DNA of 49,384 nucleotides from an uncultured Clostridia bacterium (GTDB lineage Bacteria > Bacillota > Clostridia > Oscillospirales > CAG-272): contig CANTEM010000001.1 in the NCBI GenBank assembly GCA_947652805.1, positions 1 to 49,384 of the forward strand, in the 5' to 3' direction. Under the pieces are notes generated by a model. That model saw only the letters and a list, made by a program, of their open reading frames with translations, did no database searches and was not told where the DNA came from. Of this stretch, positions 22,288-38,937 are shown one piece after another. Position numbers and translations under genes: made by a program. Each line of letters opens with the position of its first letter. The first letter of the stretch is position 1.

Positions 22288-23343
22288 ATGATGACAGAAG
22301 CAGCATTCCGCAAGGAAATGAAAACCGGGCTTGCCGGTGTATATTTGTTTTACGGTGAAGAAGATTATTTAAAGCGGTTTTATGCCGGGCGCGCCCAGTC
22401 TCTGACCCTGTCCGATGATGAAACCCTCGCCGCTTTCAACACATACAGCATGGGCGCAGACGCTCCCGATTTGGAGGATTTGCAGGAGGCTGTGCTGGCG
22501 CTTCCTGTCATGGGGGACAAGGTATTTATTCAGTATATGGCAAATTTAAACACCCTTGGCGCGCAGGGGCAAAAACAGCTTATGGAGATCCTTGCGGCGG
22601 TGGATCCGGACAGTACCGTGTGCCTGCTTACCCCCCCTGCCGGGGGATTCGATCCGGGCAAGCCGGAACGGGGCAAGCCCTCTCCCCTGTATAAAAAACT
22701 GGAAACCGTTTGTACAATGGTGAATATGGCAGCCTATCCGCCGGGTGAGCTGAAAAAATGGATGGCGCGCCGGCTGGAACGGGCAGGCGTTTCCATAACA
22801 GAGCAGGCAGCTAACGCAATGCTCCAGCGGTGCGGAAAGAATATGTATGTGCTGTCCGGGGAGTTGGACAAGCTTGCCGCATATGCCGGGGCAAACGGAA
22901 TCCGTGCATTGGAGCAGTCTCATGTGGATTTCGTCACCTGCGCTGTGGAAGAAGAGGATGCCTTCGCCCTTGCAAACGCTGTTTTGGCGGGAGACCGGGG
23001 ACGGGCGCTTGCCGTTTTGTCTTATTATAAGAAAAACCAAATCAGTGCCGTTGCCGCGCTGGCGTCTGTATCGAAAGCTATTTGCGATATGCTGACGGTC
23101 AGCCGTCTTGCCGCTGCGGGACAGGATCAGGCGGCAGTCGCGTCCGCAATGAAAATGCATCCCTATCGGGCAGGACTGTATCTTTCCGCTGTGCGGGGTA
23201 TGGAGCCGGCGCGCCTTGCCGCCGCCGCAGGACGGTGCAGGGAAGCGGATGTGCTTCTCAAAAGTACAAAGCTGGATTATATTGCTCTGGAACGGGTGAT
23301 TTGCACGATTCCTTCCAAGAAAGGGAGTGTGCGTCGTGGATAA
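22288..23343 (+). CDS. holA: DNA polymerase III delta subunit
   Basis: 351 aa. N-terminal VYLFYGEEDYLKR motif and helical C-terminal domains typical of HolA. Confidence 0.85.
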   Translation: MMTEAAFRKEMKTGLAGVYLFYGEEDYLKRFYAGRAQSLTLSDDETLAAFNTYSMGADAPDLEDLQEAVLALPVMGDKVFIQYMANLNTLGAQGQKQLMEILAAVDPDSTVCLLTPPAGGFDPGKPERGKPSPLYKKLETVCTMVNMAAYPPGELKKWMARRLERAGVSITEQAANAMLQRCGKNMYVLSGELDKLAAYAGANGIRALEQSHVDFVTCAVEEEDAFALANAVLAGDRGRALAVLSYYKKNQISAVAALASVSKAICDMLTVSRLAAAGQDQAAVASAMKMHPYRAGLYLSAVRGMEPARLAAAAGRCREADVLLKSTKLDYIALERVICTIPSKKGSVRRG

Positions 23344-23929
23344 AATTCCGATTTCCATGCCGGTCGTGGTAGAGGGAAAATATGATCGAATTAAGCTGTC
23401 CTCCATTATTGACGCGACGATCCTTACAACGGACGGATTTGCTGTTTTTAATAACCGGGAAAAGCGGGCGCTGCTGCGCGCCCTGTCCAAAAATGGAATT
23501 ATCATACTTACAGACAGTGACGGCGCCGGCGGGTTAATCCGCTCCCATATTCAGTCCATTACAGAGCCGGATAAAATATACAATTTATATATTCCGCAGA
23601 TTGCCGGAAAAGAAAAACGGAAGAAAGCTCCTTCCAAGGCAGGAACCCTCGGCGTCGAAGGAATGGACGCGGCACTGCTGCGGGAGATGTTTGAGAAGTT
23701 TGCAGACCGACATGCAGCTCTGGAAAAACCGCGCGATCCTATTACCAAAGCAGATTTTTTCGTGGACGGACTGACAGGCAGGGAAGGCAGTACAGCGCGC
23801 AGAAATCAGTTGTGTATGCAGCTGTCTCTTCCCCAGGATATGACGCCTACGGCATTGCTTGCAGCCGTCAATCTTCTGATGAGCCGGGAAGAATATCAGG
23901 CGGCGGTAGCGCGCCTGCCGGAAGGATAA
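23327..23929 (+). CDS. Toprim domain protein (RNase M5-like / DUF4093-type)
   Basis: VVVEGKYD ... IIILTDSDGAGGLIR matches the Toprim E...DxD arrangement seen in RNase M5. GTG starts are possible at 23327 or 23336, and the gene overlaps the holA stop. Confidence 0.6.
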   Translation: MCVVDKIPISMPVVVEGKYDRIKLSSIIDATILTTDGFAVFNNREKRALLRALSKNGIIILTDSDGAGGLIRSHIQSITEPDKIYNLYIPQIAGKEKRKKAPSKAGTLGVEGMDAALLREMFEKFADRHAALEKPRDPITKADFFVDGLTGREGSTARRNQLCMQLSLPQDMTPTALLAAVNLLMSREEYQAAVARLPEG

Positions 23930-26665: not shown

Positions 26666-27355
26666 ATGGAATACAAAAATACAGTGCGCGGACGGTTCAT
26701 CGACCGTCCCAATCGGTTTATTGCTCATGTGGATGTTGGGGGCGAGAGGCTTGTATGCCACGTAAAAAATACCGGTCGCTGCCGGGAATTGCTTATCCCG
26801 GGAGCAGTCGTGGCGCTGTGTCCTGCCCAAAGTCCTGCACGGAAAACCGCATGGGATCTCATCGCAGTAGAAAAGGCGGGCAGATGGATCAACATAGATT
26901 CTCAGGCGCCGAATCTTGCCGCCGCTGCTTTTTTACCCACCCTTTTCCCAGGAGCAGAAATTCAACCGGAATATAAAATCGGGCAGTCCCGTTTGGACTT
27001 TTTCATAAAAACAGGGGAGGATTGCGTATATTTGGAAGTGAAAGGGGTGACATTAGAGGAAAATGGTGTTGTCCTGTTTCCCGATGCGCCTACCCAGCGT
27101 GGCACGAAGCATGTGCATACTTTAACCCGACTTGCACAGGAAGGGCACAGAGCGTGTATCCTTTTTGTGATCCAAATGAAAGATGTAGTATACTTCACGC
27201 CGAACCGGCGGACGGATCCGGATTTTGCAGCTGCGCTGGAGGAAGCTGTGGCAGCGGGGGTAGAGCTTTTGGCGATGGATTGCCGGGTTACAGATTGTTC
27301 GATGATCATTGACGCGCCTGTGGAAGTTCGTCTGTTTACCGACAAAGCTGAATAA
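26666..27355 (+). CDS. sfsA: Sugar fermentation stimulation protein SfsA (nuclease-fold DNA-binding protein)
   Basis: 229 aa. G(R)FIDRPNRFIAHV N-terminus, LEVKGVTL, GTKHVHTL motifs. GGAGG RBS at 26654-26658. Confidence 0.9.
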   Translation: MEYKNTVRGRFIDRPNRFIAHVDVGGERLVCHVKNTGRCRELLIPGAVVALCPAQSPARKTAWDLIAVEKAGRWINIDSQAPNLAAAAFLPTLFPGAEIQPEYKIGQSRLDFFIKTGEDCVYLEVKGVTLEENGVVLFPDAPTQRGTKHVHTLTRLAQEGHRACILFVIQMKDVVYFTPNRRTDPDFAAALEEAVAAGVELLAMDCRVTDCSMIIDAPVEVRLFTDKAE

Positions 27356-27388
27356 TAATAAAACAATCGTTTTGACCTTCTTACAAGC

Positions 27389-27420
27389 AGACAGCACCGG
27401 CTTTTTTGCCGGTGCTGTCT
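27389..27420. terminator. Bidirectional stem-loop between convergent sfsA and the 103-aa ORF
   Basis: AGACAGCACCGGC-TTTTTT-GCCGGTGCTGTCT, a perfect 13-bp stem. There is no clean U-run on either side, so terminator efficiency is uncertain. Confidence 0.6.
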
Positions 27421-27441
27421 GTGATATGAGTGGATTCAAAT

Positions 27442-27753
27442 TTATAGAGCAAACAGATCGCTGATTATATCCTGTGCGGTGCATGGCGTTACAGTTCCTC
27501 TGCTGATAATATCGAAGATATGTTCTGCTTCCGCCGGGTTTCTGGTAATATCCGGCAGATGACATTCTTCTGTACGGGTGCCGCCGCAATCTACCTTTGT
27601 AATGTTAAGAGAATACTTTGCGGTATGATGATATTTGTTTGGCGGGAGAGGATCTTCGGTCAGATGATACAAAAGGATAATATCACCTGCAACGCGCTTT
27701 GTTGCTGTGCGGGTTACTTTTTGCAGCCGGTGTTTAAGCAGTGTTTGTGTCAT
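27442..27753 (-). CDS. Small conserved-looking hypothetical protein (possibly DUF6514-like)
   Basis: 103 aa with a GGAAAGGA RBS upstream. The C-terminal ...AEHIFDIISRGTVTPCTAQDIISD resembles a small Clostridia-specific family, recalled from memory. No functional motif recognised. Confidence 0.45.
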   Translation of the reverse strand: MTQTLLKHRLQKVTRTATKRVAGDIILLYHLTEDPLPPNKYHHTAKYSLNITKVDCGGTRTEECHLPDITRNPAEAEHIFDIISRGTVTPCTAQDIISDLFAL

Positions 27754-28235
27754 TTCTGACCGTCCTTTCCTGGGATTTGAGAAAATTATAACAGTGGTTC
27801 GGATTTGAAGATTAAGGCAGTGTAAAAACCGTCGTGAAAATTATTGCTTATACTACAGCGTTCGACATGATACGACCCAGCAAAATAGCGGTAAAATCTG
27901 GGCTTTTGAAGGCTTTCCAAATTTTAGTGTGGTAAAGTGTTCATTTTTGACGAAGTAACAAAATTTCTATATGTTGTATAGATTACACAGTACAACTACT
28001 TCAAACCACAATTTATAGTGGTAAATATATTTTTATAAAAATTGCCGTTAGTTTTGGGAATGCAAATGGAATCACAGATAAAAATATTTAATTGGATATT
28101 CAAATTTAAAAAAATAATTATTCACAAAAACGACATAAAAATGTGAGAGGCGCGTAAATACGGGTAAAAATGCAATTTTCCGGTACGCCGCTTTCAAACT
28201 TTGGAAACAGCACATAGAAAGGCAGGAGTATACAA

Positions 28236-28928
28236 ATGGATAACAGTGAGCGGTTTTTAAATCTGTACAGGGATTTGGAGGAAGTACTCAGTGTAAAGTA
28301 CCAGACACGGTCTGGAGCAGTGCATCGGTTCGGCGGAGGAGAAGGCAGCCGGTGGCAGGAGGAGCTGAATCTGTTCCGGGAAATGCGCAATCTTTTGTCC
28401 CATCACGGGAGAATCGGGGAAGAGGCACCGATGCAGCCGTCGGAGCCAAGCATCCGCATTTTAGAGGAAATTTTGGAATATGCAAAGCATCCGCCGGCGG
28501 CGCTTTCCATTGCAACACGTACAGATCAGCTATACTGTGCGAACGGGAGCGAGCTTGTGACCGATTTGCTGAAGGAAATGGAGCAGCGGGGATTTTCCCA
28601 TATTCCTGTAGTAGACGAAAAGCGACGGCTCACCGGCGTTTTCAGCGTAGGCTCCCTCTTTACCCATACAAGAAACAAACCGGAACAGCCGGTTGCAGGC
28701 ATGCGGGTACGGGATATGGAAGCAGTGCTTCCTCCCCGGCAGCATGTTATGGAAAAGTTTTATTTTGTGGATCAGGATGCGTCCTGTTATGAGATTAAAA
28801 AGCTGTTTCAAAAAAGGGATGCGGGCAGCCGGCGGGTTGCCGCAATATTTGTAACGGTCGGCGGAAATGAAAAAAGTCCCATTATGGGCATGATCACCCC
28901 ATGGGACGTATTGCGGGCGGAAAAATGA
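28236..28928 (+). CDS. HEPN-like (RNxxxH) N-terminal domain fused to a CBS domain pair
   Basis: 230 aa, AGGAG RBS at 28224-28228. The helical N-terminus ends in FREMRNLLSHH (R51-N-x3-H56, nt 28386-28403), which is the HEPN Rx4-6H motif. Residues ~85-228 contain two CBS repeats (GFSHIPVVDEKRRLTGVFS and AAIFVTVGGNEKSPIMGMITPWDVL). Confidence 0.7.
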   Translation: MDNSERFLNLYRDLEEVLSVKYQTRSGAVHRFGGGEGSRWQEELNLFREMRNLLSHHGRIGEEAPMQPSEPSIRILEEILEYAKHPPAALSIATRTDQLYCANGSELVTDLLKEMEQRGFSHIPVVDEKRRLTGVFSVGSLFTHTRNKPEQPVAGMRVRDMEAVLPPRQHVMEKFYFVDQDASCYEIKKLFQKRDAGSRRVAAIFVTVGGNEKSPIMGMITPWDVLRAEK

Positions 28929-28934
28929 GGTAAG

Positions 28935-29190
28935 GGTTCCCCAGCAATTTTAACCAATATAAAAAGGCTCCCTGGGGGAGCTGGGCAGCACACCAATATA
29001 AGAAAGGCTCCCTTGTGTAAAGGGAGCTGTCGCGAAGCGACTGAGGGATTGTCTCGTTAAGTTGCCGATTTGTAGATTATTCAAAATGATAGCATAACAA
29101 TCCCTCCGAGTTTTGCTACGCAAAACCCACCCCCCTTTGCACAAGGGGGGCTTTTTGTTTGGTTGCCTCCTCGCAAGGGAGCCTTTTTGG
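28935..29190. repeat. Composite repeat block including full copy 3 (core inverted)
   Basis: CCCCAGCAATTTTAACCAATATAAAAAGGCTCCC (28939-28972). Left arm AAAGGCTCCCTTGTGTAAAGGGAG (about 29004-29027). Sub-hairpin GTCGC-GAA-GCGAC. Inner arms at 29043-29052 and 29097-29106. Core at 29053-29096 in the reverse orientation. Sub-hairpin GTTTTGC-TAC-GCAAAAC. Right arm at 29127-29152, then an additional arm at 29166-29186. Confidence 0.85.
29130..29160 (+). terminator. Intrinsic terminator formed by a repeat arm, downstream of the HEPN-CBS gene
   Basis: CCCCCCTT-TGCAC-AAGGGGGG (8-bp stem) immediately followed by CTTTTTGTTT. Confidence 0.6.
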
Positions 29191-29215
29191 ATGTTGATAT
29201 TGCTGTGGAGCCTTT

Positions 29216-31747
29216 CTACTGCTGCGATGTGTTCAAGGTTTTGTCCATCCAGTTCCAGCGCTTTTCAATAAAGGTTTTCAAATATTCCACTTGCCGTTCG
29301 TGGGTGTTACACAGTACGACTGCTTCCGGCTGCATGCCCACCCGAGCAAACAAAATATCCCATACTGCAAAATTATCATCCGCCGAGGGGGCGGTAAGAC
29401 GGTATCCTTCCTCCAGAGCCGCCCTTGCTGTCTCCAGCAGCGGAGCCTTTATCTCGTTCCAGCGATCCCGCAGCTGCGTCACGAACGCGTCATCCCGCAT
29501 AAGCTGACACATCCAGTTGTAATGCACGTATCCGCCGTCGTCGGTCAAACATGCCCATTCCTCATACCGCTGTAAATCTGCCACGCTATTTCCAAAGGCT
29601 AAATCAAAGTCCCAAACCTGAGACATTTTCAGCTTTTGCCCTGCTCCTTTGGTCATAAAAACGCTTCGCCGGAAGCAGGAATCTGCGTTGTAGGAAAGCT
29701 CCGTCATGATAAACCAGTCGATCAGGGAGGGAATATCAATATAATTTTCATAGTCCCCCATCACTTTTACTGCGCCGTCGGTCATATTGATATAATTTTC
29801 AATATAAGTCAGCGTTTGCTCGTCTGCACCGGCAGGCTCCAAAACGCCGATATTGCGCAGTATGGAGGAGGAAAATACAGGATGCCCGCTGTCCCGGCTC
29901 ACGCCCAGCTCCAGCAAAAATCCGGTATTTACATTTCCTGCGTCCTCATGAATGTACAGCCGTCCCTGTCCCTTTTCTACCTGTTGTCCTAAGGTATAAA
30001 CCCCCACATATTCTCCGTTTAAAAAAACGTCCACGGGATATTGGGTGGCATAGCAATCCATGTTGTCCAGCACCTTAGCGCATTCCAGCGCCACATAATT
30101 GCGGATGAGACTTTTGTCTGCAAAATTTGCAAGAAGCACCCAGGTTTTTTCGCTCTCCATCCCCAAAACAGACTGGGATTCTTCAAATTTGATTTTGTAG
30201 GGCTTTTTTTCCGCCCATTCCCATGTGGTGTTGCCCCGCCCACGGATTTTTGCCGTGCTGGCTTCCAGAGAAGGCAGACCGGCAGAAAAGTCGCTTTCAA
30301 TAGAAATTGTGGCTCCCACATATTCTTCTTTCGAGGTGATCGCCGCGCCGCCCTCTGTTTCAATGTGTACCACCGGCATTTGCAGGGAGCAGTTTGTTTC
30401 TATATAGTAAAGTGAGGTGCCTGCCCTGTCGGATACTTTCATATAGCAGCCCATGGGATCCAGCAGGTTTACTGTGCCGTCGCTGTTTACACTGCCGGCA
30501 AAGGATACGGTGCAGTCCGGGGAAACAGATACGGTTAGAGAAGCATTTTTCAGAGCGGAAGGGGAGAGGACGCTGTCCACCTGCGCTCTGTATACAAAAG
30601 GCGCGTCCTGCGCGGTTGTCCAGCGGATATCTGCTGTGGTATATGCATTGTTTGCCACTTCCAGGGTGATCTCCGGCACAGCAGAGCAGGTTCCGCCAAG
30701 GGTATATCCCGAAAGGATTTGCCCGTTATAGTCCCGGAGACGGTAAAGCAATGCCGCTGTGTGAAGGGGAGGGCAGTTTTCTTCCCAAATCAAAGAACAG
30801 TTCGGAGCGTCCAGAAGGATTTTGTCCAGAGGGAATGCTCCCTCCAGTCTGATTTCTCCGGTGGAATCTGTTTGTATTGCGATCGGTGCATCCAGCACCG
30901 CGCCGTTCAGGGACAGGGACACAGGAATCGAAAAGGTGATTTTCCGATCCACCGTAAAAGCTTCAAGCCGGATCGTCGTACCCGGCGCAGCGCGTTCAAA
31001 GTCCGTGCCGGCTGCCAGCGTTTCCAGTTCTTCCATAGAAGAAACGGTAAGTGTGCCGTCCAGAGACTCCCCATTGAGAGACGCGGCGGCAACGGTTAAA
31101 GGAATATTTTCAGGGGTGAGGGAATCCGGCACGTTGATATCACATTTCGGAGCACGGGCATAAAAGCCAGAAGCTAAAATGCCGCCGGACAGGGAAAGGG
31201 TGCCGGATTCGCCTGTGACAAAGGAAACCGGACCTTTGACCGAGAGGGTGTGTCCGTCTGTGGAGAGAGACAAGGGTTTTGTTATGTACAACGGGTTCTC
31301 CAGTGTAATATCTTGCAGCAAGGTAATATCCGACGCATCGGAAACGGCTGTCTCCAGCCCTGCCGGGGAAAGGATATATGCCTGATCCGTCCCTTCCTGC
31401 ATCATGCGGATGCCGCCATTCAAATCCGCTTTTTCGGAGAGAGATACAGAAGCAGAATCGGAGCTGCCTGCGGCCGCCGTGAAAGTAACAAACCCGCCTT
31501 CTGCGGCGTTTGTGTACAGGCTGACGGAAGCTTCCCTATCTGTATTATTGTAAAAGGTGAGTTTTACATCACCGGACAAAGCCACCTGTCGGAGGGCGGG
31601 ACCTTCCTCTGTGGAAAAAAGGAGGGTATGATTTGCATACAACCACAATCCGTTACCTTTGTGCCGGTCGCAGGAAATAAACAGGAGGATACACGAAAGC
31701 AGCAGGGTGAGAAGTCCTGTCGATACAATTTTTTTGCTCATATGCAT
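29216..31747 (-). CDS. CotH kinase-family protein with lipoprotein-type signal peptide and long N-terminal beta-rich region
   Basis: 843 aa. N-terminus MHMSKKIVSTGLLTLLLSCILLFISCD (lipobox-like). The C-terminal ~350 aa carry CotH signatures: NFADKSLIRNYVALE, VDVFLNGEYVGVYTL, VWDFDLAFGN. Confidence 0.85.
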   Translation of the reverse strand: MHMSKKIVSTGLLTLLLSCILLFISCDRHKGNGLWLYANHTLLFSTEEGPALRQVALSGDVKLTFYNNTDREASVSLYTNAAEGGFVTFTAAAGSSDSASVSLSEKADLNGGIRMMQEGTDQAYILSPAGLETAVSDASDITLLQDITLENPLYITKPLSLSTDGHTLSVKGPVSFVTGESGTLSLSGGILASGFYARAPKCDINVPDSLTPENIPLTVAAASLNGESLDGTLTVSSMEELETLAAGTDFERAAPGTTIRLEAFTVDRKITFSIPVSLSLNGAVLDAPIAIQTDSTGEIRLEGAFPLDKILLDAPNCSLIWEENCPPLHTAALLYRLRDYNGQILSGYTLGGTCSAVPEITLEVANNAYTTADIRWTTAQDAPFVYRAQVDSVLSPSALKNASLTVSVSPDCTVSFAGSVNSDGTVNLLDPMGCYMKVSDRAGTSLYYIETNCSLQMPVVHIETEGGAAITSKEEYVGATISIESDFSAGLPSLEASTAKIRGRGNTTWEWAEKKPYKIKFEESQSVLGMESEKTWVLLANFADKSLIRNYVALECAKVLDNMDCYATQYPVDVFLNGEYVGVYTLGQQVEKGQGRLYIHEDAGNVNTGFLLELGVSRDSGHPVFSSSILRNIGVLEPAGADEQTLTYIENYINMTDGAVKVMGDYENYIDIPSLIDWFIMTELSYNADSCFRRSVFMTKGAGQKLKMSQVWDFDLAFGNSVADLQRYEEWACLTDDGGYVHYNWMCQLMRDDAFVTQLRDRWNEIKAPLLETARAALEEGYRLTAPSADDNFAVWDILFARVGMQPEAVVLCNTHERQVEYLKTFIEKRWNWMDKTLNTSQQ

Positions 31748-33858: not shown

Positions 33859-34806
33859 TCAGCGCCGTCCTCCGCCGGCACCCCGGCTTCCGCCGCCTCC
33901 AAATCCACCGAAACCACCGCCTCTGCCGCCGCCGAATCCGCCGGAGTGTCCTCCGCCAAAACCGCCCGGGCGAGAGCCTCCTGGTCTGGGGCCGGGACGC
34001 GGACCGGGACCCGGTCCGTAGTGGTGATGATGGTGGTGATACCCTCCCCAGAAGGGGCGCCCGTATCTGTATCGGTAGCCGCCGCCCGGTCCGCCGCAGG
34101 AAAAGCAGGAGGAACGGAGCAGAGCAAAGAGCACGACCGCGATCACAGCAAGGGTGATCAGCAGTCCGATGATTCCGGAAAAAATAGCGCCGATTACACT
34201 GCCGGCTGTTCCTGTGCTTCCGCCGCCGGCAGGACCTGCCGCGGGACCGGAGCCGTAACGGTAGGTAACGCCGTCCCAGCTTTCTGTGTCAATATTATAG
34301 ATTTGTTCCAGCGTTTCTGTCATTTTCTCGCAGAAAATGCTTGCGGCTCTGTCATACTGTTTCCCGTCGAAGGCGCTTTCCATACCGCTGTCAAAAATCC
34401 GCTGGAGCACGGCGGAGGTGACTTTTCCTTCCAGTCCGTAGCCAAGGGCAGCCCAATACTTGAAGGTGGAGATTTCCATTACGAACAAAACGCCGTTGTT
34501 TTGCTCCTTATCGCCGATTCCCCAATGGTTGAACAGATCGTCTGCATATTCGCTCAAATCGGAATAGCCGGTTTTGTTAACAGCAACAATCACAATCTGC
34601 GCGCCGGACAGAGCATACAATGCGTTGGACGCCTGATTGATCTGCTGTTCCGTCTGGGCGTCGATTACGCCTGCCGGGTCGTATACGCAGGATGCGGGAG
34701 GATCCGGCAGCTTATCGGTATCGGCTGCACAGATTTGCAGGGTGCCGCCAAGGAGCAGGAATATGCTTAAAATCAGAGCAAGGGATTTTTTTGCAGCAGT
34801 ATACAT
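33859..34806 (-). CDS. TPM domain (YgcG-like) membrane protein with His6 run and Gly-rich C-terminal tail
   Basis: 315 aa. Signal/anchor sequence and a TPM_phosphatase-type domain (VYDPAGVIDAQTEQQIN..., GAQIVIVAV, NNGVLFVM, GYGLEG). One TM helix, then a cytoplasmic tail GGYHHHHHHYGPGPGPRPGPRPGG...GGFGGGRGGGFGGFGGGG. Confidence 0.85.
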   Translation of the reverse strand: MYTAAKKSLALILSIFLLLGGTLQICAADTDKLPDPPASCVYDPAGVIDAQTEQQINQASNALYALSGAQIVIVAVNKTGYSDLSEYADDLFNHWGIGDKEQNNGVLFVMEISTFKYWAALGYGLEGKVTSAVLQRIFDSGMESAFDGKQYDRAASIFCEKMTETLEQIYNIDTESWDGVTYRYGSGPAAGPAGGGSTGTAGSVIGAIFSGIIGLLITLAVIAVVLFALLRSSCFSCGGPGGGYRYRYGRPFWGGYHHHHHHYGPGPGPRPGPRPGGSRPGGFGGGHSGGFGGGRGGGFGGFGGGGSRGAGGGRR

Positions 34807-34831
34807 GCCGGTAATGTCCTTTCAAAGTAGA

Positions 34832-35362
34832 TCAGTCAAACACAATCGCCGCATCTTTCGCAAAAAGGGAAGCGGGGAACAGATCTGTCAGCTTATTGTA
34901 TTTCTTTGCCGCCTCGTTGTAGGCATCGTATTTTTGCAGGATAGAAATATCGCTGCACACCGCCATATGGGCTGCACGTACATCGTCCTTATAGTTTCCC
35001 GAGGTCAGCAGCCGATTATACAGGGTTTCCGTGCTGCGTTCAATGATGGTATATTCGCAGCTAAGTGCTGTAGGACTGTTTCCGTGGTTTTGCATTTCCT
35101 CGGCTGCCCGGCGCAGTGAAGCGCAGCTATCGTCTTTTTCCAGCGTCTGCTCATACAGATCGGCAAACAATATACTGTGATATGCAAGATCCGACAAGGT
35201 AGCGGACACAGTTTCTCCGAACCGGTCTTTTTTTGTAAATTCCTTTTCCACCCGTCCTGCCTGGACAGCCACGCTGCGCCATGTTCCGAAAATCGGTGTG
35301 ATCAGAATGATCACGGCAAGAATGATACCTGCACGGACTCTATTTTCCAGAAAAAACTTCAT
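34832..35362 (-). CDS. LemA-like membrane-anchored protein (divergent)
   Basis: 176 aa. N-terminal TM helix and helical body. The C-terminal YDAYNEAAKKYNKLTDLFPASLFA resembles the LemA C-terminal YNxxxxxYNxxxxxFPxxxxA motif. It sits in the usual position upstream of a TPM gene. Confidence 0.5.
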   Translation of the reverse strand: MKFFLENRVRAGIILAVIILITPIFGTWRSVAVQAGRVEKEFTKKDRFGETVSATLSDLAYHSILFADLYEQTLEKDDSCASLRRAAEEMQNHGNSPTALSCEYTIIERSTETLYNRLLTSGNYKDDVRAAHMAVCSDISILQKYDAYNEAAKKYNKLTDLFPASLFAKDAAIVFD

Positions 35363-35388
35363 ATTAAAAGGATTCCTTTTCCGGGGGA

Positions 35389-36546
35389 TTATTTGTTATT
35401 TTGCATCAGCTTTGCACGCAGCTCGCCTTCGATACGACCCAATTCCTTTTCTGCCTCTGCCCGCTTTGTTTTGCCTTCCGCCTGGATCCGCTGGACTTCA
35501 TCCAGGGTAGCGATCAACTGCTGGTTTGTATTTTGCAGGGTTTCCAGTTCAACGATGCCCCGCTCCGATTCTTTTGCGATGTCAATGGAGCCTTGCTTTA
35601 GAGTTTCCGCGTTCCGGCGCAGCAGCTCGTTGGTCATGTCGGTGACAGCCCGCTGGGCTTCCATTGCCTGATTGGAATGCTCAATTCCCAGAGAAAGGAT
35701 CATCTGGTTTTTCCAAAGGGGGATGGTAGAAACGATAACGGATTGGATTTTCTCCGTCATCAGGGTATCGTTGTTCTGTACCAGACGGATCTGGGGAGCC
35801 ATCTGAATGCAGATCATTCTGGTCAGCTCCAGATCATACAGCTTTTTCTCAAATCTGGTCAGTTGGGCTTCAAAATCATTTACAGCCTGGGCATCCTCCG
35901 GCAGACCGGATTTTTCCGCCTTTTCCCGGAGTGCCACCAGCGTGGTTGCCCGCTCTGCTTCCAGCTTTTTCTTGCCTGCTAAAATGTACATCGTCAGTTC
36001 CTTGAAGTAGGCAAGGTTCATTGCGTACATTTTATCCAGCATGGCAACGTCCTTCATCAGCACGATCTGATGCTGTTCCAGAGATTCTACAATACTATTG
36101 ACGCTTGCTTCCGCAGAGTCGTATTTTGCCTTCATTGTAGCAATTTTATTTTTCTGCTTTTTGAAAAATCCCAAAAAGCCCTTCTCATCTTCATCGGCGG
36201 TGATGCCTTTCAGCTGGGTCACAAGTCCTGCGATCATATCGCCAAGCTCGCCGAAATCCTTAGTTTTAACCGATTCCAGTGCAGAATCGGAAAATGCGGA
36301 AATTTTTTGCTGGGCGGCAGCGCCGTATTGCAGAATGGCAGAGCTGTCCGTCACGTCGATTTTCTCTGCAAAGGCTTCTACTACCTTCTTTTCTTCTTCT
36401 GTCAGTGCGGAATCATTCAGCTCCTGGCTTTCCGGCTCCGCTTCTTTTACAGGTTCTTCTTCCTGGGGTGCGGCAGCGGCTGCTGCGGTCCCAAAGGGAT
36501 CCAGTGTCAGGGAAGGAATCTGCTCGTCAAAGTTTTGGTTATCCAT
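35389..36546 (-). CDS. TelA/YaaN family toxic anion resistance protein
   Basis: Strong similarity to B. subtilis YaaN as recalled: SLTLDPFG, ILQYGAAAQQKISAFSD, APQIRLVQNN, IPLWKNQ. The ATG at 36546 has a GGAGAG RBS 6 nt upstream and gives 385 aa. The ORF track begins at 36576. Confidence 0.9.
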   Translation of the reverse strand: MDNQNFDEQIPSLTLDPFGTAAAAAAPQEEEPVKEAEPESQELNDSALTEEEKKVVEAFAEKIDVTDSSAILQYGAAAQQKISAFSDSALESVKTKDFGELGDMIAGLVTQLKGITADEDEKGFLGFFKKQKNKIATMKAKYDSAEASVNSIVESLEQHQIVLMKDVAMLDKMYAMNLAYFKELTMYILAGKKKLEAERATTLVALREKAEKSGLPEDAQAVNDFEAQLTRFEKKLYDLELTRMICIQMAPQIRLVQNNDTLMTEKIQSVIVSTIPLWKNQMILSLGIEHSNQAMEAQRAVTDMTNELLRRNAETLKQGSIDIAKESERGIVELETLQNTNQQLIATLDEVQRIQAEGKTKRAEAEKELGRIEGELRAKLMQNNK

Positions 36547-36592
36547 ATTACTCTCCATTCCGCCGCCATGCGGCATACTGTTTACTTGATTT

Positions 36593-38626: not shown

Positions 38627-38937
38627 GCTTGATGTGCGATGAAACGGAAGGTTGCCGCCCTTTTTGCTACAGAGGACGGGGAATTTCCGTGGAGTATGTC
38701 CGTTTTGAAAACGGGCGAAGCGAACGCGAGCGCAGGCGGGCAGTCGATGTGTGTAAGACTGACCTGCGGATCTCTGCACTGCTCCGGCAGGGCGGAATGT
38801 GTCCGGATGAAAAGTACGGCGGATTTGTGGTTGCACCGCCGGAGTGCTTTTTGATCCGGTTTCCTTCAGGAGATCCTGGAAACGCCCGGGAGCGTGTTCG
38901 TCGCCTCGGCAAGTAAAAAAATTTAGGAGGCAAAACA
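38627..38937 (+). promoter_or_regulatory. Long GC-rich 5' leader of the S10 operon with a terminator-like element
   Basis: About 310 nt lie between the predicted TSS and the rpsJ GTG. Stems: CGGCGG (38817-38822) with CCGCCG (38836-38841), and an overlapping alternative GCACT (38776-38780) with AGTGC (38843-38847) followed by TTTTT (38848-38852). A further hairpin GGTTTCC...GGAAAC lies at about 38858-38882. Confidence 0.4.

Follow-up and report, generated by a model that had tools for sequence, protein, structure and literature searches.

The locus and its gene

The 49,384-nt stretch of DNA analysed here (contig CANTEM010000001.1 of an uncultured Clostridia bacterium; referred to below as the window) carries on its plus strand, at 28236..28928, a complete gene for a protein in which a small helical domain precedes a CBS pair. 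An earlier note, made from the sequence alone, had proposed that this protein joins a HEPN ribonuclease (RNase) domain to a nucleotide sensor and is thus a candidate ligand-gated RNase, with possible relevance to stress or phage infection. A ligand-gated RNase is also the best reading of the data presented below, because in its conservation and predicted topology the N-terminal domain resembles a catalytic HEPN domain, and the C-terminal part is a genuine CBS pair.

The reading frame begins with ATG and comprises 230 codons and a stop. A Shine-Dalgarno sequence, AGGAG, can be seen in the sequence itself at 28224..28228 (plus strand), 7 nt before the ATG, and the start MDNSERFL... is common to the window protein and to full-length homologues of 230-240 amino acids. 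Upstream lies a divergent minus-strand gene for a DUF6514 protein of 103 amino acids (27442..27753; Pfam PF20124, E = 1.4e-8), and downstream a convergent CotH gene (29216..31747, minus strand). With a divergent and a convergent flank the gene is monocistronic here, and no MNT nucleotidyltransferase or antitoxin gene adjoins it in the window. The setting described in the earlier note, between an AT-rich spacer of about 480 nt and a block of repeats and terminators, was recovered as well: the divergent intergenic region (27754..28235), which also serves the DUF6514 gene, measures 482 nt with 33% GC compared to 52% for the window, and 10 terminator-like hairpins were found in 27300-29300 where 1.9 were expected. 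The statement that this is the only plus-strand gene within 10 kb applies to about 27.4-38.2 kb; it does not extend further upstream, where the plus-strand SfsA and radical-SAM genes end 880 nt before the gene.

Conservation of an E...RNxxxH site

Residues 47-57 read FREMRNLLSHH and contain an exact Rx4H motif with an asparagine after the arginine (R51-N52-L53-L54-S55-H56; codons at 28386..28403, plus strand), the predicted catalytic site. The earlier note had placed this motif at the end of some 60 helical residues; in the AlphaFold2 model it lies at the C-terminal end of the third predicted helix, and one more helix follows. The motif alone is weak evidence, because RNxxxH occurs 17 times in the 98,764 amino acids of the six-frame translation of the window, about once per 5,800 residues, so that one occurrence in 230 amino acids has a chance of roughly 4%. 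Its significance derives from its conservation across divergent homologues rather than from its mere occurrence.

In 38 homologues with identities down to 31%, R48, R51, N52, H56 and the acidic residue E15 (codon 28278..28280, plus strand), which is situated in the helix before the motif helix, are invariant. R51 and H56, the two residues singled out in the earlier note, are retained in 217 and 216 of 217 full-length homologues, respectively, N52 in 215 and E15 in 214 (each at least 98.6%), and in an alignment of 102 divergent homologues reaching down to about 21% identity (A3) R51 and H56 form the sole invariant columns of the whole protein. Positions universal in the Oscillospirales, Enterococcus and Rhodococcus branches are F7, L8, E15, R51, N52, H56, P68 and P86 in the N-terminal domain, and only P124, F191, G210 and D224 in the CBS pair. 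H56 is followed by H, N or S and then by variable residues, and a conserved tyrosine does not occur there. In these alignments the E...RNxxxH site is the focus of selection, as would be expected of an active site. The homologues are annotated only as 'CBS domain-containing protein'. A profile search with the N-terminal domain in 1.84 billion representative sequences returned 548 matches, and the best 150 of these 548 all belong to the same family.

A probable HEPN-type domain

AlphaFold2 predicted the full-length protein with a pLDDT of 91.9 and residues 1-88 alone with a pLDDT of 92.0 and a pTM of 0.83. Helices are predicted at residues 3-22, 28-34, 38-56 and 70-84. Helix 38-56 ends with the six residues of the motif, and from there the predicted chain continues through a loop or beta-bridge into helix 70-84. 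The first 88 residues (28236..28499, plus strand) can thus be delimited, on the basis of model and conservation, as a probable minimal HEPN-type RNase domain.

HEPN domains are defined as up-down bundles of four helices in which a variable insert separates helices 2 and 3, an Rx4-6H motif ends helix 3 and extends into the loop preceding helix 4, the arginine is followed by a polar residue (N, D or H), and helix 2 has a conserved acidic residue, often in the form Ex3[K/R] (PMC3710099). The predicted model fits this definition if helix 3-22, with E15, is taken as helix 2, helix 28-34 as the insert, helix 38-56 as helix 3 and helix 70-84 as helix 4.

Profile comparisons point in the same direction. 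The 24,736 models of Pfam were scanned with the family consensus, with members of the alignments A1 and A3 and with 27 isolated N-terminal domains. Eight HEPN families recurred as sub-threshold matches with E-values of 0.005-0.2, namely HepT, RiboL-PSP, Apea, DUF4145, DUF3644, Abi_2, Swt1 and KEN; DUF4145 and DUF3644 are counted among the HEPN families (PMC3710099). Among the isolated domains, HepT/DUF86 was matched by 5 of 27 (best E 0.012), RiboL-PSP-HEPN likewise by 5 (0.017), Apea-HEPN by 3 (0.0052), and DUF4145, DUF3644 and Abi_2 by 2 each (0.0058, 0.028 and 0.08, respectively). The other scans yielded HEPN_Swt1 at E 0.019 and KEN (Ribonuc_2-5A) at E 0.16, and in the 115-position Swt1 profile the consensus of the family aligned with positions 75-114, the end that carries the motif. 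Eight HEPN families among a few dozen weak matches from 24,736 models are far above chance expectation.

The commonest sub-threshold match was to DUF6548 (PF20185, 164 positions), which was found with 23 of the 102 members of A3 and with 4 of the 27 isolated domains; the best E across the scans, 0.00029, came from the isolated domains. Its first ~70 positions align to the F-L...E...RNxxxH region, and by this sequence resemblance DUF6548 may be an unrecognised relative of the HEPN-like domain. A literature search on DUF6548 found nothing. Whether helices 28-34 and 38-56 form a helix-turn-helix was also considered, and this reading was rejected: one such model alone, HTH_Tnp_Tc3_1, was matched, by 1 of the 27 isolated domains at E 0.42, while the query, the consensus, A1 and A3 matched none, and the conserved residues cluster at the C-terminal tip of the long helix.

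The CBS pair

The remainder of the protein (residues ~89-230; 28500..28925, plus strand) is a CBS pair, or Bateman module, as had been supposed. PF00571 matches it in two stretches with E = 7.7e-14 and a score of 52 bits, where the cut-off is 24. NCBIfam returned only CBS-type matches for the window protein, all far below threshold. A Foldseek search with the full-length model was dominated by CBS pairs: 312 matches in the Protein Data Bank (PDB) had E<=0.001, and the top 50 of these 312 are all CBS-pair proteins. Matches with E ~1e-7 include CorC/CNNM, CBSX1/2, MgtE, AMPK gamma, AcuB (with AMP, ADP, ATP or Ap4A), DarB (8acu_F) and CbpB (6zza; with cyclic di-AMP, c-di-AMP). The second CBS motif (CBS2) carries the canonical ribose-binding signature G-h-h-T-x-x-D as GMITPWD at residues 218-224, with D224 conserved throughout the superfamily. 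The corresponding stretch of CBS1 is GVFSVGS, without the aspartate. One canonical nucleoside-binding site is therefore likely, as far as can be predicted from these signatures.

Distribution and gene neighbourhoods

A peptide pattern derived from the N-terminal domain was found in ~120 species-representative genomes, nearly all of them titled Clostridia or Oscillospirales-type metagenome-assembled genomes (MAGs). Named taxa include Avispirillum, Acutalibacter, Pseudoruminococcus massiliensis, Neglectibacter caecimuris, Fimadaptatus and 'Ruminococcus' MAGs, and two matching genomes are titled Bacteroidaceae or Prevotella. A single family member was found in each fetched locus, and synteny is stable within clades.

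Clustering of the neighbours in 86 non-redundant loci revealed five recurrent arrangements. In class A, the window's own monocistronic class (~12 loci), SfsA or GH31 and the minus-strand DUF6514 gene precede the family gene and the minus-strand CotH gene follows it. In class B (12 loci) the order is SpoU/TrmL-like methyltransferase, ABC-F ATPase, the family gene, MnmA and sometimes NadA, with gaps of -4 to 85 nt. Class C (11 loci) has holA, an RNase M5-like Toprim/DUF4093 gene and, in some cases, DivIVA-like and GNAT genes before the family gene. In class D (5-6 loci) the family gene stands between a dCMP deaminase gene and Dxr and RseP, and in class E (7 loci) a RelA/SpoT small alarmone synthetase gene follows 3-25 nt downstream, in some cases with KsgA upstream. 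Counted over the 86 loci, ABC-F is the direct upstream neighbour in 12, the alarmone synthetase the direct downstream neighbour in 7, and MnmA occurs in 10, the SpoU/TrmL-like gene in 9, the RNase M5-like gene in 11, holA in 9 and KsgA in 4; 39 loci have a same-strand neighbour at most 60 nt away.

The alarmone synthetase gene follows the stop codon of the family gene in the loci L006 (2964-3680), L056, L066, L069, L070, L083 and L088, and in three of these seven KsgA lies directly upstream. Its position 3-25 nt downstream in seven genomes suggests a functional link to (p)ppGpp metabolism. In 12 related loci a DUF6514 gene is likewise situated upstream in opposite orientation, as the immediate neighbour in 11 of them, and this is confined to the window's own clade. 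Genes of the other classes can be recognised at some distance in the window: holA (22288..23343) is kept ~4-6 kb upstream together with an RNase M5-like open reading frame (23327..23929) that is 45% identical to the class C cluster representative, and an ABC-F gene lies two genes downstream.

Restriction-modification, CRISPR, Abi, MNT and antitoxin genes are not among the recurrent neighbours in the 86 loci. By tblastn, the family was not found in 50,697 phage records, except for one mislabelled chromosomal contig of Enterococcus faecalis, nor in 72,556 plasmids, except for one Rhodococcus case. A vertically inherited, chromosomal two-domain protein is the best explanation for these data.

Distant homologues in Enterococcus and Rhodococcus

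The apparent phage match is the contig 'Enterococcus phage Efs 1-1-1' (GenBank OR846607.1, UNVERIFIED_ORG; locus L091, 3097-10065), which encodes a homologue with the motif AQLRNAIVHE. As in E. faecalis V583, the gene order on this contig is fhs, the homologue, lspA (with a 4-nt overlap), rluD, pyrR, pyrP and pyrB. Because the contig carries chromosomal genes, the match was discounted as evidence of phage carriage; at least this part of the record is E. faecalis host chromosome. With hhalign, the family N-terminal profile matched the Enterococcus protein with E = 3.9e-5 over the entire domain, and this homologue is conserved across the genus Enterococcus and also in Tetragenococcus.

In E. faecalis, lspA is EF_1723 (PMC4173765) and pyrR is EF1721 (PMC2902013), and the homologue is therefore EF1724. 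Under the annotation 'CBS domain-containing protein', EF1724 has been classified as 'Fitness Important' by transposon sequencing (Tn-seq), with a dVal of 0.020 (Gilmore et al., 2020; PMC7701990). The same study found it in 24 of 24 Enterococcus species and counts it among the genes that separate Enterococcus from Vagococcus (PMC7701990). The gene neighbours together with these fitness data point to a core function tied to translation or RNA metabolism rather than to defence or toxicity.

The Rhodococcus homologue, WP_161996975.1, has the motif FRDLRNAIVHH and is encoded on the conjugative plasmid NZ_CP126457.1 of Rhodococcus sp. AH-ZY2 (locus L090, 3416-5726). Its gene follows an HNH endonuclease gene and lies near genes for a MazG-like NTP pyrophosphohydrolase and a DEAD/DEAH helicase. 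Such surroundings look closer to a conflict or mobile-element setting than those of the Firmicute genes do, and the plasmid copy shows that the module can also travel.

Transcription signals and further features of the window

The 482-nt spacer contains a weak sigma-70-like site at 27947-27975 (plus strand), and the number of promoter-like sites around the gene does not exceed that in shuffled sequence. A riboswitch or structured leader upstream of the gene was rejected because neither Rfam, folding nor spacer alignment gave evidence for one: an Rfam scan of 27700-29300 had no match at the gathering cut-off or at E<=1, the predicted 265-nt leader folds no better than its shuffles (z = -1.0, not significant), and the spacer is conserved only near the start of the DUF6514 gene. 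There, 25-60 nt upstream of the DUF6514 start (window positions 27780-27815), a motif GA(A/G)GATTAAG with a nearby AATTATA recurs at the matching position in L001, L007, L009-L012, L014, L018, L021 and L024, the rest of the spacers being dissimilar. It is probably a promoter or operator of the DUF6514 gene.

Seven of the ten terminator-like hairpins are in or adjoin the convergent gap (28929-29215), which also contains short direct and inverted repeats; four GC-rich hairpins in the gap are made of a repeated AAAGGCTCCC / GGGAGCCTTT unit. By terminator scan and repeat analysis, the best candidate for an intrinsic terminator of the HEPN-CBS gene is at 29130..29160 (plus strand; hairpin 29130-29150), with an 8-bp GC-rich stem followed by CTTTTTGTTT, and a second candidate is at 29167-29189 (plus strand; hairpin 29167-29181). 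Both hairpins are placed nearer the minus-strand CotH gene, and two minus-strand terminator-like hairpins (28967-28981 and 29007-29027) are placed nearer the plus-strand HEPN-CBS gene. With the terminators of each strand nearer the opposite gene, the 3' untranslated regions would overlap by ~150-200 nt. A further hairpin, GAGGGATTGT...ACAATCCCTC, spans 29043-29106 in the same gap.

Two features further downstream are recorded for completeness. A same-strand cluster at 33859-36576 (minus strand), downstream of the ABC-F gene, encodes TelA (toxic anion resistance), a 176-amino-acid open reading frame without a Pfam match and a TPM-domain phosphatase. The S10 ribosomal protein operon begins with an S10-Clostridia leader at 38630-38718 (plus strand), which matches Rfam RF03136 with 38.2 bits, the gathering score being 35.1.

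Proposed mechanism and alternative explanations

The active sites of HEPN enzymes are normally composite, with two Rx4H motifs meeting across a dimer, and CBS pairs, or Bateman modules, normally dimerise and reorient upon binding of an adenosine- or guanosine-type nucleotide. A CBS pair fused to such a domain would therefore set the geometry of the dimer and switch the RNase on or off. In the mechanism proposed here, a minimal HEPN-type domain with the predicted active-site residues E15, R51, N52 and H56 would be rigidly linked to the CBS pair, and ligand occupancy of CBS2 would gate the assembly of the composite site in response to the level of a nucleotide or second messenger. By analogy, the general base acting on the 2'-OH would be H56, with R51 and N52 stabilising the transition state and E15 in an assisting role, and the protein would be a metal-independent endoribonuclease leaving 2',3'-cyclic phosphate ends, as other HEPN enzymes do. 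The models for this scheme are RNase L/KEN, PrrC, Csm6, Cas13 and HepT (summarised in PMC3710099). Adenine nucleotides, c-di-AMP and (p)ppGpp are candidate ligands suggested by the context, which also proposes tRNA, rRNA or ribosome-bound mRNA as candidate substrates; the protein would process or degrade RNA related to translation, as a housekeeping or stress-responsive activity, and would not serve anti-phage defence. This full statement, a HEPN-like and CBS-gated RNase with a composite dimer site and a housekeeping RNA role, is held to be somewhat favoured by the data.

A number of observations weigh against it, and most concern the HEPN assignment. Pfam found nothing in the first ~90 residues of the window protein even at E<=10, and for no family member did a match to a HEPN model reach the gathering score (best E 0.005-0.02). 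Sequence searches of the PDB with the protein, with the N-terminal profile (A2) and with the superfamily N-terminal profile (A4) retrieved no HEPN protein. Foldseek comparison of the isolated N-terminal model with PDB and BFVD gave nothing below an E of about 3, and the only HEPN structure in the list, the HepT toxin 7bxo_H, ranked ninth with a TMq of 0.39 and a probability of 0.07. The 88-residue domain contains three long helices and a short one, so the counterpart of helix 1 may be missing; the conserved acidic residue stands in the context LEExLxxKY and not in the typical Ex3[K/R] spacing; and the shared motif and its helical context may account for much of the sub-threshold HEPN signal. 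With regard to function, the neighbourhood links form lineage-specific synteny classes and no one universal operon, EF1724 is only ~21% identical to the window protein and polar effects on lspA or rluD may contribute to its Tn-seq phenotype, and no biochemical study of a family member and no experimental study of any HEPN-CBS protein was found. Since no profile or fold match is significant, membership of the N-terminal domain in the HEPN superfamily is considered probable, not proven. The proposal of a ligand-gated HEPN RNase thus stands with regard to conservation, topology, sub-threshold HEPN matches and CBS pair, but it lacks a significant profile or structure match to HEPN.

The non-significant matches and the presence of only three long helices could also be explained by an unrelated three-helix module with a convergent RNxxxH-like motif, serving as a novel enzyme or ligand site or as a nucleic-acid-binding domain. 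The frequency of DUF6548 among the sub-threshold matches and the label 'predicted transcriptional regulator' given by JGI to some homologues would fit such a module. The concentration of weak matches on eight HEPN families, the agreement of motif position, polar residue and upstream acidic residue with the published definition, the lone and poor HTH_Tnp_Tc3_1 match and the location of the conserved residues at a helix tip rather than on the face of a recognition helix all argue in the other direction, and a non-HEPN origin is judged to be quite unlikely. A different possibility is that the domain has no catalytic function. The CBS pair would then sense c-di-AMP, AMP/ATP or (p)ppGpp and the helical domain would serve as a protein- or RNA-binding adaptor acting on an alarmone synthetase or ABC-F protein, comparable to the action of DarB/CbpB on Rel. 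The structural resemblance of the CBS pair to DarB and CbpB, the proximity of alarmone synthetase and ABC-F genes, the existence of non-catalytic, binding HEPN domains (PMC3710099) and the fact that nuclease activity of the family is predicted only are compatible with this idea. Non-catalytic HEPN domains, however, typically lose the very set of catalytic-like R, N and H and the glutamate that is invariant here, the proposed partners are lineage-specific while the motif is universal, and the NCBIfam model of CbpB (NF041630) scored 14.7 bits against a cut-off of 125. A purely sensory protein is therefore regarded as unlikely.

The anti-phage or toxin relevance envisaged in the earlier note would correspond to a HEPN RNase that is held off by the CBS pair and released by an infection-derived nucleotide, in the manner of Csm6, Cas13 or Abi effectors. 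Most characterised bacterial HEPN RNases are indeed defence or toxin proteins (PMC3710099), the Rhodococcus homologue has an HNH endonuclease, a MazG-like protein and a DEAD-box helicase as neighbours, and NCBIfam holds a CBS-containing anti-phage family, DS11. The DS11 model (NF053863), though, reached only 13.7 bits against a cut-off of 260, and this in the CBS region alone, and PADLOC returned no match to the window protein at E<=10. The recurrent neighbours in the 86 loci are housekeeping rather than defence genes, a single match was found in each fetched locus and gene order is stable within clades, phage carriage was not detected in the 50,697 phage records, and of the 72,556 plasmids one carries a distant homologue. 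In Enterococcus the orthologue belongs to the genus core and its disruption lowers fitness, contrary to what a toxin gene would do. This part of the earlier proposal finds no support, a defence effector being very improbable.

If the gated RNase reading is true, a metabolite-gated RNase takes part in the normal physiology of abundant gut Clostridia and of enterococci, HEPN biology extends beyond conflict systems, and a widely conserved gene annotated as 'CBS domain-containing protein' acquires a function. For a search for ligand and substrate, the links to ABC-F, MnmA, TrmL-like, KsgA, RNase M5-like and (p)ppGpp-synthetase genes offer a starting point. More speculatively, and with considerable doubt, the family and EF1724 might represent the first bacterial HEPN RNase that serves as a core housekeeping enzyme and not as a toxin or defence protein: a nucleotide- or alarmone-gated endoribonuclease that would trim or inactivate translation-related RNA together with ABC-F proteins, tRNA/rRNA modification enzymes and small alarmone synthetases, linking the energy or stringent state to RNA turnover in gut Firmicutes.

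Comparison with known systems

HEPN-CBS fusions, with or without an HD domain, were predicted in the Swt1-like/Abi2 group by Anantharaman, Makarova, Burroughs, Koonin and Aravind (2013; PMC3710099), two examples being alr3009 of Nostoc ('CBS and HD (alr3009), active') and gi 118580987 of Pelobacter propionicus. Like the window protein, these fusions combine an intact Rx4H HEPN domain, classed as 'active', with CBS, and the logic is shared, in that nucleotide sensing by CBS would regulate RNA stability. The window family fits the Swt1-like clade of that study in the RN...H form of its motif and in its weak Swt1 and Abi_2 matches. The published examples, to which the family is likened by description only, are from Proteobacteria and Cyanobacteria and some contain HD, whereas the window family is a Firmicute one without HD; it also has a very short HEPN-like domain of 88 residues and a translation-linked context that is absent from the paper's account. 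The novelty implied by the earlier note, according to which no function had been shown experimentally for this architecture, was overstated: the fusions and the hypothesis were published in 2013, and the distant homologue EF1724 has a Tn-seq fitness phenotype.

EF1724 has the same two-domain architecture and the same F, L, E, RNxxxH, P and P positions as the window family, and is likewise chromosomal and placed beside RNA- or translation-related genes, in the order lspA, rluD. It differs from the window family by the exchanges R48->A, H122->Q and T221->R, and was not previously recognised as HEPN-like.

The HepT toxin of the HepT/MNT type VII toxin-antitoxin system (Shewanella SO_3166, PDB 7bxo) is, like the N-terminal domain of the window protein, a small helical Rx4H domain, and HepT-like models are among the most frequent sub-threshold Pfam matches of the family, all of them non-significant. 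Unlike HepT, the window protein has no MNT partner, either adjacent in the window or among the recurrent neighbours in the 86 loci, and lacks the RX4HXY signature. The combination of a nucleotide sensor with a dimeric HEPN RNase is the design of the CARF-HEPN proteins Csm6/Csx1, of RNase L and of PrrC/RloC (PMC3710099 and established knowledge). In the window protein, the sensor is CBS and not CARF, ankyrin/kinase or an ABC ATPase, the HEPN domain comes first, and the context is housekeeping, compared to the CRISPR or restriction-modification context of the Csm6/PrrC type. DarB and CbpB, c-di-AMP receptors that control Rel, and AcuB match the fold of the CBS pair with Foldseek E-values of about 1e-6 to 1e-7. 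These proteins are without the N-terminal Rx4H domain that makes up the extra 88 residues of the window protein, and the genomic tie of the family to (p)ppGpp synthetase genes in seven loci parallels DarB/CbpB.

Since architecture and hypothesis were published in 2013, both are known as predictions and do not constitute a new principle. What is new is a large family in Firmicutes, recognised as HEPN by neither Pfam nor NCBIfam, the unusually short domain, the housekeeping, translation-linked neighbourhoods and the link to the fitness phenotype of EF1724. The advance over the basic idea predicted in 2013 thus consists of a new family, a new context and a tractable model organism.

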